Part shown: positions 30,304-33,300 of the stretch, piece after piece
Position numbering within the stretch: position 1 is the stretch's first letter
How the letters are laid out: every line of letters starts with the position of its first letter
Assembly (NCBI GenBank): GCA_036630325.1
Contig: CP142732.1
Span: 620,001 to 684,000, forward strand
DNA: 64,000 nt
Source of the DNA: Vairimorpha necatrix
Lineage: Eukaryota
Reading direction: 5' to 3'
Translations under genes and position numbers: made by a program
Notes under the pieces: model-generated
The model's input: only the letters and a program-made list of their open reading frames with translations
What the model was told of the DNA's origin: nothing
Databases searched by the model: none

Positions 30304-33300
30304 TGTTATATATTCTTATATTTTTGATCCTAAATTATGATAAATAAATACATGGGGGCGATACCGAATCGTGAGTTAACAAGTGTTGGCTGTGGTCAAG
30401 AGGCCAGAAGGTTATTAGAAGAGTTTAAGAGGATTGTTTATGGATTAGTATTGTCTGATTATGATTTTGAGAAAAATGTAAAGAAGGAGATTTTTGATCT
30501 TGGAACTGATGAGTTGAAAGAATTTATGGTTAAGAATATTAAGATTGGAGATCATTGGAAAGTTATGGAAACCAAATTAGAGGAATTGGTTAAAGTACAG
30601 GAGGAAAAGGATATGAGATTACGGATGATTGAGGAGGTCACAAAGATGGTGGCAGAGGAGATTAGAAATATTAGTAGAGAGGAAAGAATATTTGAGAAGA
30701 GAAGAACAATGAGATGTTATAATTGTTCAAGAATGGGACATAAGAGTCAGATGTGTTATTATAGATATAGAAATGTTAAGAATAAAGACGAATGTGAGAG
30801 TATTAAAGAAGAAGGTAGCAGTAGCTGTGGTGAAAGGACTTATAGGAACACATGGGATGCTAAAAGACAAAAGAAACAAGAATGGAAGACAAGAAATAAA
30901 AGATGTTATGATGAGGTAGAAAAGAACGGTCTAACTTTAGAAGACATGAGAAAGAGGTTTAGGAACGTTATAGACAACGAAGAAGAGAAAATAAGATATT
31001 GTAAAATTGAAAAATGCAGAATCAGAACTGAAGAAGGTAAGAAAGTTGTAAGGAAAGGTCAGCAGGTGCCACAAGCGCATAAAGAAGAGCTGAGAAAATA
31101 TATTCAGAGGTTAGAGACAAGGAATGTCATAAGAAGATCGACGTCGGAATGGAGAAATCCGATTAAAGCTTTAATTAAGCCAGATGGAAGTATAAGACTG
31201 GTTAGCAATCTCATGGCATTAAATGATTTAGTGGAGAAAGACCCTTATGAATTAGTGAACATTAGGGATATCATAAGGAACACGCAAGGATCGAAGTTTT
31301 TCAGTGTTATAGGCCTTAAAGAGGCTTTTTATGGAATCGAAATAGAAGAGCAAGACAAGCATAAGGCTGCATTTGAGTATGATAAGATAGTATATGAATG
31401 GAATAGTATGGTCATGGGGTTTAAAAACTCGCCTCAGATCATGCAGAGAATTATGAATAAAATTTTTGAAAAACATTTGGGTGGTAAAATAGAAGTATAC
31501 ATGGACGATATAGTGATTCATGCGAAGACTAGAAAAGAACATGATAAATTATTTGTAGAAGCGATGAAATTGTTAGAACGGAATAATATGCGGATAAATT
31601 CAAAGAAAATTCAGTAAGACCAAAAGGAAGTCAAGTTATTGGGAGTTACATTAAACGGAGATGATATGATTCCGTCTGAAATCAAGAAAAACGAAGCACT
31701 AGAGTTTCCAACGCCGCAGAATGTGTTTGACATCGAAGATTTTTAGGACTGAGTGGATGGTTTCGAGGATTTATTAAGAATTATGCGGAGAAGACATTAT
31801 ATATGACTGAATGTTTGAAAGGTAAATGTAAAGTATTGAATTGGACTGATGACTTAAATAAAGAGTTCGAAAATATGAAGGAAACGTTAAGAAGTATGAG
31901 TAAGTTGAAAATTGTAAACTATGACAAGGAATTTTTATTAAGAACTGACGCGAGCAATATATGAATGGGCGCAGTACTCATCAGAAGAATGATAAAGAAG
32001 AGTGGGTGCCAGTACAATGGGCATCGAAGAAATTCACCCCGACGGAAACTAGATATGGTATAAGTGAAAAGGAAATGTATGCCATATATCGGGGAATAAA
32101 GAAATTTGAGTATGAGTTAAGAGGACGAAAATTTAAAATAGAAACGGATCATAAAGCATTGGCGGAAATAAGAAGAAAGCCGTGTTTTAATAATAATAGA
32201 ATTAATCGATGGATTGAGAAGATCCAAGAATTTGACTTTGAAATAGATAACAGGAAACCAGAACATATGGTCGTGGCGGATGCTTTAAGTAGGATACACG
32301 AGGAGGTTGATCCAAGAAAAGAAATGATAAAAAAAAGAAGTGAGCGTCAAATTGAAGGTAAATGGTTGAAGCACGTCGAGACGATAGACGGTAAAGAATA
32401 CTGGAATTTTGATTCGGGGAGGAAAGCATTGATTCCTAAAATAAAAGAAAGAAATGAGCTTATGAGACGTTATCATGAAGAGCATGGACACAGAGGACTA
32501 GGAAGCATGTATTATGCCATGAAGTTTGATTATTATTGGCCAGGAATAAAAGAAGATATAGGGAAAATGATAAAAAGGTGCGAGGAGTGTCAAATTTACA
32601 ATAGGAAAAAGTCTGGAGGATGTGATTTTGTTGCTACAAGCAGGTATTTAGAAAAAGTAGCGTTAGATTTAATTGATTTTAGAGATAAGGGCAAATATGT
32701 ATTAGTTGCGATAGATTATTATACGAGGATAGCGTGGGGATGTGTATTATACGATAAGAAGAGATCCTCTGTGGCCCAGTTTATTGAGAACTTATGTAGA
32801 AATGGCAGGAGGCCGAAGGAAATAATAACGGATAATGGAAAGGAATTTGATAATGTTGACTTTAAGGATTTGTGTAGAAAATTGGATATTACCCATAATA
32901 GGGCGAGTGTCGAGTCTCATAGAAGCAATGGTGGAGTTGAAAGAGTTATAGGAACGCTTAGAGATCTAATATTGAAAATGAGTAAAGAGACGGCGAGTTT
33001 TGAAGACATAGTGATGGAAAGTTTTAAAATTTATTATAATAGTTACCATGAAGGTATAAGAAGTACTCCCAATGAAGCGGTAAAAGACAATACGGGAAAA
33101 GTGATGATATTAAATGGACCAGAAGGAGACTACAGTAAAAGATTTGTTAGAAGATATAGAGAGCGGTTTATTGAAGGACAACTAGTAAGGATAGCTAAGA
33201 AAGAAAACATCAAAGGATGTAATAAATATCAAAAGGGAAGGTTTTTAGACGAAGGTATTATAATGGTGATATGCCCTGGGACTCGTATGTTGTGAAGCTA

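Follow-up and report, generated by a model that had tools for sequence, protein, structure and literature searches.

A microsporidian lineage of Ty3/gypsy-derived LTR retrotransposons that has very probably lost its aspartic protease

Microsporidian Ty3/gypsy groups have been described as encoding one polyprotein (Parisot et al. 2014, PMC4202319; repeated in PMC13174016), and they include "Aalg retro L" of Anncaliia algerae, with a 50-bp long terminal repeat (LTR) and an open reading frame (ORF) at 32-3049 in a total of 3,127 bp (PMC4202319 Table S1). In the main text and one supplement file of PMC4202319, the word "protease" occurs 0 times, and retro L is listed there without comment. Here we analyze a stretch of 64,000 nucleotides of Vairimorpha necatrix (contig CP142732.1, positions 620,001 to 684,000 of the forward strand; "the window"), which carries on its forward strand, at 30304-33445, a microsporidian Ty3/gypsy-derived LTR retrotransposon of 3,142 bp. 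By eye, the first lines of the Aalg retro L sequence share with this element the LTR start, the CA/TGG junction, a zinc knuckle near codon 130, and an AATAAA just after it. An earlier note on the window had described a mini-Gag and a CCHC zinc knuckle that run straight into reverse transcriptase (RT) without a D(T/S)G motif; this layout is confirmed, with a charged spacer of 70 aa in between. We conclude with high confidence that a microsporidian single-ORF Ty3/gypsy-derived lineage lost its aspartic protease once, that a sub-branch then probably lost the second capsid lobe, and that the lineage kept inserting. Literature searches outside Repbase, most subscription papers, figures, and bioRxiv supplements returned no account of a protease-less lineage, and PMC12859917 offered nothing that bears on it.

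The frame at 30337-31617 is open for 426 aa, with the YMDD motif at aa 388 (31498). Its Pfam matches are RVT_1 at aa 281-426 (E 4e-25) and zf-CCHC at 126-140 (E 0.011, below its cut-off), and a search up to E 1 returned nothing beyond knuckle and RT. Specifically, the knuckle (30715..30756, aa 127-140) is followed by a disordered charged spacer (30757..30966; profile, predicted structure), which occupies the position of the protease, and then by the N-terminal part of RT up to the palm (30967..31617). The retropepsin expected of a Ty3/gypsy element is absent ahead of RT, and the six frames of 30304-31100 contain no D[TSE]G. Charged residues make up 47% of the spacer and hydrophobic ones 20%, compared with 23% and 37% in retropepsin seed domains. 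AlphaFold, run on a 43-sequence alignment, predicts helices up to residue 119 and then a disordered spacer, whose predicted local distance difference test score (pLDDT) lies below 50 at residues 141-164 and 170-191.

The same absence extends to the relatives. A retropepsin profile built from 51 distant seeds was tested on 66 held-out proteins: all 57 proteins of the protease-less clade scored ≤1.4 bits (five of these are N-truncated and hence uninformative), and eight of nine near relatives scored 13.9-63.3 bits, the ninth being truncated. Aspartic-protease Pfam families matched 0/27 clade proteins versus 3/3 near relatives; weak Peptidase_A17 matches in three of the 27 fall on the RT thumb/RNase H region, outside the spacer. 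A sample of 14 loci from five sister families likewise holds no D[TS]G and reaches at most 0.7 bits on the profile. Neither of the two outcomes on which the earlier note had staked its claim came to light: profile and AlphaFold revealed no cryptic protease fold, and the Pfam count found the family members without a protease.

Within the genome, a DNA search gave 49 matches from 40 scored of 339 candidates. One of 30 fetched copies has an unbroken frame of 1,017 codons from LTR to polypurine tract, and sister families have open frames of 1,006-1,068 codons, in line with the single polyprotein of the microsporidian groups. This open-frame copy holds the knuckle, RT (RVT_1 276-434), RNase H (RT_RNaseH 524-628), and an integrase with an H2C2 finger (699-752) and a DDE core (rve 771-849), in the order of Ty3/gypsy elements, and no protease. 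In the window's element the remaining RT, RNase H, H2C2 zinc finger, and DDE integrase (31618..33379) are broken. The stop at 31615-31617 is private to this copy, the family frame continuing into RNase H and integrase, and the damage relative to the natural open-frame copy amounts to three frameshifts and two stops in total. The distance from knuckle to YMDD is 783 bp here and 774-822 bp in the 27 measurable of 29 other copies (634 bp in one, through a deletion), so that none of these has space for a protease.

A second, more decayed copy of 3,140 bp (759..3898, forward strand) is a mosaic of two subfamilies that are ~70% alike: its first 1.8 kb are 90-92% like the 30304-33445 subfamily, and the rest is 86-95% like another. 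Its LTRs differ by 1 nt, it has no clean target-site duplication (TSD), and a second copy of the mosaic was not found among 40 scored candidates. The mosaic fits template switching and also DNA-level recombination, and it is only a hint of two templates meeting. The earlier note had taken the equal layout and length of the two window copies as excluding a one-off deletion. The lengths (3,142 and 3,140 bp) do agree, but the copies are ~90% alike in the Gag-RT half, so the pair alone cannot exclude a recent deletion; the family data do. Both an assembly error and a one-off deletion were rejected, the protease-less layout being family-wide and present across named microsporidian genera.

A protein search returned 262 relatives. 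Among the 120 listed, about 60 show 41-80% RT identity, and many are proteins of roughly 1,000 aa on contigs of 3.0-3.2 kb; those that carry a name belong to Vairimorpha, Nosema, Enteropsectra, Nematocida, and Pancytospora. With residues 1-225 alone, the homolog search gave one protein among 1,060 candidates, and the ESM Atlas gave only leads below 0.9, to CCHC/Gag clusters. DNA of outside relatives amounted to 0/29 pattern matches in viral contigs, eight loci in metagenomes (two near, from one family), and four loci in genome contigs. Two clade members (L140, L141) lie on short contigs binned in a Clostridium metagenome-assembled genome, most likely as eukaryotic contamination of the bin.

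The RT is nested among protease-bearing Ty3/gypsy-type elements. In an RT-RNase H tree (50 of 85 rows used, 35 thinned), the protease-less proteins fall on one side of a branch (support 99/94) as sister to protease-bearing single-ORF elements; the group comprises 27 scored protease-less proteins plus one N-truncated row, P0056. Repeating the tree with families of the genome itself, and with P0056 omitted, gave 98/93. One protein, P0200, scores <10 bits on the profile yet has a clear DTG; it lies outside the clade in the tree and was excluded from the group. The position of the protease-less proteins on one branch beside protease-bearing kin argues for one loss, long ago, given the outgroups used (database proteins and elements of the same genome, without a named reference element).

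The history of Gag can be followed along the same branches. In the protease-less proteins that branch off earliest, Gag is longer and can be aligned with the two-lobed Gag of the protease-bearing kin (hhalign probability 92%); there are seven such proteins, all without the knuckle. The window's sub-branch retains only the first half of Gag. Probably, then, the protease was lost first and the second capsid lobe later. In the element itself, residues 1-83 align with the first Gag lobe of the relatives (pairwise hhalign E 1.2e-4; reversed control 0.84), the predicted helical bundle at 30385..30612 (pLDDT about 90) being probably one capsid lobe. The relatives' second Gag half does not align; in its place sits a long charged helix of 51 aa (30556..30708; predicted, mean pLDDT 87), which may act as a coiled coil. 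Of 48,161 fold comparisons the best was the Arc capsid C-lobe (root-mean-square deviation 2.9 A over 66 aligned residues), with a Z of 5.7 that is not significant, and the capsid lobes of Ty3 and Rous sarcoma virus are within the top 50, all tied with unrelated helical proteins. Foldseek found no match under E 0.001 in viral and PDB libraries. The predicted structure and alignment point, if weakly, to a Gag in which a single capsid lobe and a long helix are probably left. The earlier note's reading that a capsid domain is missing is partly wrong: residues about 12-87 align with the relatives' first lobe. In the knuckle, the H and the last C are invariant, and the first two C and the G are ≥90% conserved over 43 aligned proteins.

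Life without a protease appears to have been long. Between subfamilies, both of which lack a protease, the proportion of synonymous differences in RT (pS) is 0.77-0.81 and that of nonsynonymous differences (pN) 0.11-0.12; these saturated synonymous sites, with the protease missing on both sides, argue for a long life without it. Between-subfamily ratios of nonsynonymous to synonymous rates (dN/dS), rough figures from DNA alignments of decayed copies, are 0.08-0.15 for integrase, 0.21-0.29 for the spacer, and about 0.5 for mini-Gag. In the set of 22 copies that retain the two LTRs, a 5-bp TSD is present in 14, and in four the LTRs are identical to each other. In the five sister families the LTRs measure 38-50 bp, and in 12 of the 13 copies whose LTRs were found the matched part holds 0 differences. 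When the genome was searched at the protein level, about 47 of 95 scored RT matches (from 1,214 candidates) lay in stop-free frames of at least 1,000 aa (counted by eye). A non-autonomous element with a missing or decayed enzymatic ORF is ruled out by the RT pS/pN values, the integrase dN/dS, and the many open frames.

The nucleic-acid signals are those of an LTR element, with direct TG...CA LTRs, a tRNA primer site, a polypurine tract, and a short TSD. The left TSD, TAAAA (30299..30303), is repeated at 33446-33450. The 5' LTR has 49 bp (30304..30352) and contains an AT-rich start, a C-run immediately 5' of ATG 30337, and an AATAAA at 30343-30348; the 3' LTR has 50 bp (33396..33445), differs from it at five positions, and is preceded by the polypurine tract (33386..33395). 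The primer-binding site (PBS, 30353..30366) is complementary at 14/14 nt to the 3' end of tRNA-Pro(AGG), the genome's own tRNA with CCA added, which is the best match among 50 distinct tRNA sequences. The PBS is translated within Gag, and a second ATG (30352-30354) spans the LTR/PBS boundary. In the element the C-run reads CCT, and in most copies CCCC; all six LTRs compared have a C-run shortly 5' of an ATG, which makes 30337, the start taken by the earlier note, a better candidate than the ATG that spans the LTR/PBS junction, although both may be usable. Microsporidia are reported to have a CCC promoter motif just 5' of the start codon and to use AAUAAA stochastically (PMC2803860).

Under closer inspection, the spacer carries two recurrent motifs. 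An Asn-Lys pair (N-K) within 22 aa of the knuckle occurs in 26 of 43 proteins (shuffle mean 8.6) and is followed by Y or C in 24 (shuffles 1.8), whereas N-R is not enriched (7 vs. 5.5 in shuffles). In the element this N-K is encoded by an AATAAA (30781..30786), a candidate internal poly(A) signal. The codons are AATAAA for the post-knuckle N-K in 8/9 families compared with 22/51 other N-K pairs (p 0.007), AATAAA or ATTAAA lies within 60 nt of the knuckle in 9/11 families compared with 51/357 other windows, and the AATAAA within the LTR is also translated as N-K in several families. Plant Ty1/copia elements, in which a Gag-only RNA arises through premature termination (PMC5580714), suggest by analogy that the internal AATAAA might yield a short Gag-only mRNA, a possibility that we hold to be real but clearly short of even. 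One sister family (L089, L090, L098) lacks AATAAA both in the 3' part of its LTR and after the knuckle and may use another poly(A) signal. The second motif is basic, KR-x-K/R, present in 24/43 spacers (3.8 in shuffles) and represented here by KRQKK (30862..30876), which we take to be of the nuclear-localization-signal type.

It is tempting to speculate on how such an element replicates. Transcription would begin at the microsporidian CCC motif, which lies within the very short 5' LTR, and read-through would give the genomic RNA and one Gag-RT-RNase H-integrase protein of roughly 1,010 aa with its domains on flexible linkers. Leaky use of the AATAAA just past the knuckle would give a short Gag-only mRNA and hence the surplus of free Gag that cleavage or frameshifting provides in other elements. 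Gag could then collect RNA via the knuckle and form a minimal particle by self-association of its lobe and long helix, tRNA-Pro would prime reverse transcription, and the basic motif ahead of RT could assist nuclear entry. As a whole, with the protease loss and this proposed replication taken together, we consider the explanation the best available, its chances falling barely short of even. That the polyprotein is never cleaved during replication, one of the two options named in the earlier note, is the mechanism that we tentatively favor, at odds a little lower still. The boldest version, a fully autonomous LTR lineage without proteolytic maturation, whose uncut chain reverse-transcribes and integrates, with free one-lobe Gag from a poly(A)-ended RNA in a non-standard particle, must be called rather unlikely.

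Several points weigh against uncut replication and its parts. The weightiest is that Ty1 and Ty3 require processing (titles cited in PMC6952103). The genome also holds many potential protease sources (146 of 150 scored retropepsin, PF13975, matches above cut-off, many in frames of 1,100-1,340 aa). The window's own subfamily is mostly decayed, and among close copies the mini-Gag dN/dS is 1.86 (few changes, one shared reference), which speaks against strong constraint there. Support for the capsid lobe is weak, with an hhalign probability of 55% and a Z of 5.7 that unrelated helical proteins reach as well. As for the poly(A) signal, the idea arose after two cases had been seen and the families are related, which makes the p value optimistic; one family has AACAAG at the N-K and one has no signal, the N-K is absent from 17/43 proteins, every family's ORF contains AATAAA anyway, 1-15 times, and a short Gag mRNA would end without a templated stop.

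Alternatively, the polyprotein might be cut in trans by retropepsins of co-resident LTR families without a dedicated partner, the element being autonomous only for RT, RNase H, integrase, and Gag. The 146 retropepsin matches make cleavage from distant families possible, and the need of Ty1 and Ty3 for processing speaks for it as well. In addition, the N-K-xxx-N-Y past the knuckle resembles, by eye, the N-Y/N-aliphatic stretches that precede the relatives' protease, so that the motif could be a retained cleavage site. However, what the motif retains is N-K and not N-R, with AATAAA codons preferred, and retropepsins usually become active inside their own particle. The nearest protease-bearing family in the genome (L153) is broken in 6/6 copies examined, and 12 sampled protease-bearing long-frame elements are only 27-35% identical in RT, with different LTR and primer where readable. 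We therefore regard borrowed cleavage as possible and rather doubtful. The L153-L158 family of the sister lineage has DEG in place of the retropepsin motif D[TS]G, and a database relative carries DPG; the odd motif may reflect relaxed protease function beside the loss.

A host protease or the proteasome could instead cut or trim the spacer, which is predicted to be disordered and is rich in paired basic residues (the KR-x-K/R enrichment above). Spacer length, however, is under little restraint, ranging from 35 to 179 aa across a clade in which the spacer is otherwise hard to align, and the basic motif also fits a nuclear-localization signal. We judge this explanation improbable.

The earlier note had looked for a helper in the separate Gag-PR element at 35902..38324 (forward strand, DTG at 36886), which would provide capsid and protease. 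That element does have a Gag domain (Pfam) and a protease-like domain (18.7 bits on the profile), and it is present in five near-identical and seven related copies, 10/12 of them in open frames of at least 700 aa. It derives, however, from another autonomous family of the genome: it has the LTR start of a distant protease-bearing family, to which it is 46-49% identical over about 600-700 aa, and its LTRs of about 228 bp and tRNA-Leu primer site differ from those of the tRNA-Pro-primed element at 30304-33445. Moreover, the protease-less clade spans several microsporidian genera and retains its own Gag and knuckle. The helper assignment was accordingly dropped as very improbable. The 35902 element looks mobile, carries at its C-terminus a long remnant of a decayed pol, and appears as a non-autonomous derivative that kept the protease and not RT.

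Finally, an unrecognizable protease hidden in the spacer or mini-Gag is extremely improbable: a D[TS]G does occur in the spacers of two clade proteins, and sister-lineage proteases carry the odd motifs DPG and DEG, but the former score ≤-2.4 bits or give no match, the latter are caught by the same profile (13.9 and 32.3 bits), the predicted model is helical and then disordered, and the shortest spacers, of 35-43 aa, cannot accommodate a fold of ~100 aa.

The remainder of the window holds further elements and genes. Two LTR-flanked elements on the reverse strand (53692-55737 and 58423-60516) have single frames of about 530 aa with no protease on the profile and no RT match, and a weak Retrotrans_gag match in one only; a conventional element with Gag, protease, RT, and RNase H (61420-64000) is cut by the window end. 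At 7718-12128 and 12240-15500 lie Rep/helicase frames, Helitron-like by eye, with six tandem units of about 523 bp after them. A 644-aa frame (24449-26383) contains a D5_N primase-helicase domain (E 1.7e-6), such as many large DNA viruses and mobile elements encode. Transposase-like frames, some with inverted repeats, lie at 5703-6473 (reverse strand), 16940-17542, and about 33700-35000 (both forward), and are by eye presumably Merlin/ISXO2-like and MULE-like. There are also two related ubiquitin C-terminal hydrolase genes with hydrophobic N-termini (18037-19167 and 42742-43854; Pfam UCH on the first), a 558-aa frame (56499-58175) that contains a 108-bp repeat three times and lacks a good Pfam match, and a tRNA-Met gene (21654-21728, reverse strand).

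LTR retrotransposons and retroviruses are regarded as always including a retropepsin, and the clade shows that this requirement can be escaped or outsourced. Uncut replication, if true, would show how little machinery an integrase-using LTR element needs, in 3.1 kb; borrowing, if true, would mean parasitism on elements ~30% alike, independent of shared packaging signals.

With Ty3 of Saccharomyces cerevisiae and Metaviridae-type elements, the element shares TG...CA LTRs, a tRNA PBS, a polypurine tract, a 5-bp TSD, the RT-RNase H-integrase order, and the CCHC knuckle. It differs from Ty3 in lacking a retropepsin and in having probably a single capsid lobe where Ty3 has two, LTRs of less than 50 bp, no gag/pol frameshift, and a start codon inside the LTR. 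Its nearest RT relatives (39-43%), the protease-bearing sister lineage (P0061, P0133, P0141, P0196, and the L153 family), are likewise single-ORF elements and share, in those with DNA or a full start, the Met-Ala start at the LTR/PBS junction; they differ in a two-lobe Gag and a retropepsin directly before RT. The plant Ty1/copia element EVD offers a precedent for excess Gag through a prematurely terminated RNA (PMC5580714); EVD, however, is a copia element, needs splicing, and keeps its protease, and the short RNA of the microsporidian element is our proposal. Troyka was rejected as a protease-less precedent since it encodes a protease, and DIRS elements use a tyrosine recombinase (both PMC12440569). 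In contrast to the latter, the element at 30304-33445 has a DDE integrase, direct LTRs, and TSDs, and Pfam searches up to E 1 matched rve and Integrase_H2C2 and no tyrosine recombinase family. DIRS-type retroelements and hepadnaviruses do without an aspartic protease. Non-autonomous LTR derivatives such as TRIM, LARD, Morgane, and TR-GAG are small and lack domains, whereas the protease-less clade is old, and purifying selection has kept its RT, RNase H, and integrase complete. Taken together, the element descends from Ty3/gypsy, keeps its nucleic-acid signals, and lacks its protease, and is thus a derived variant of that group rather than a plain member.

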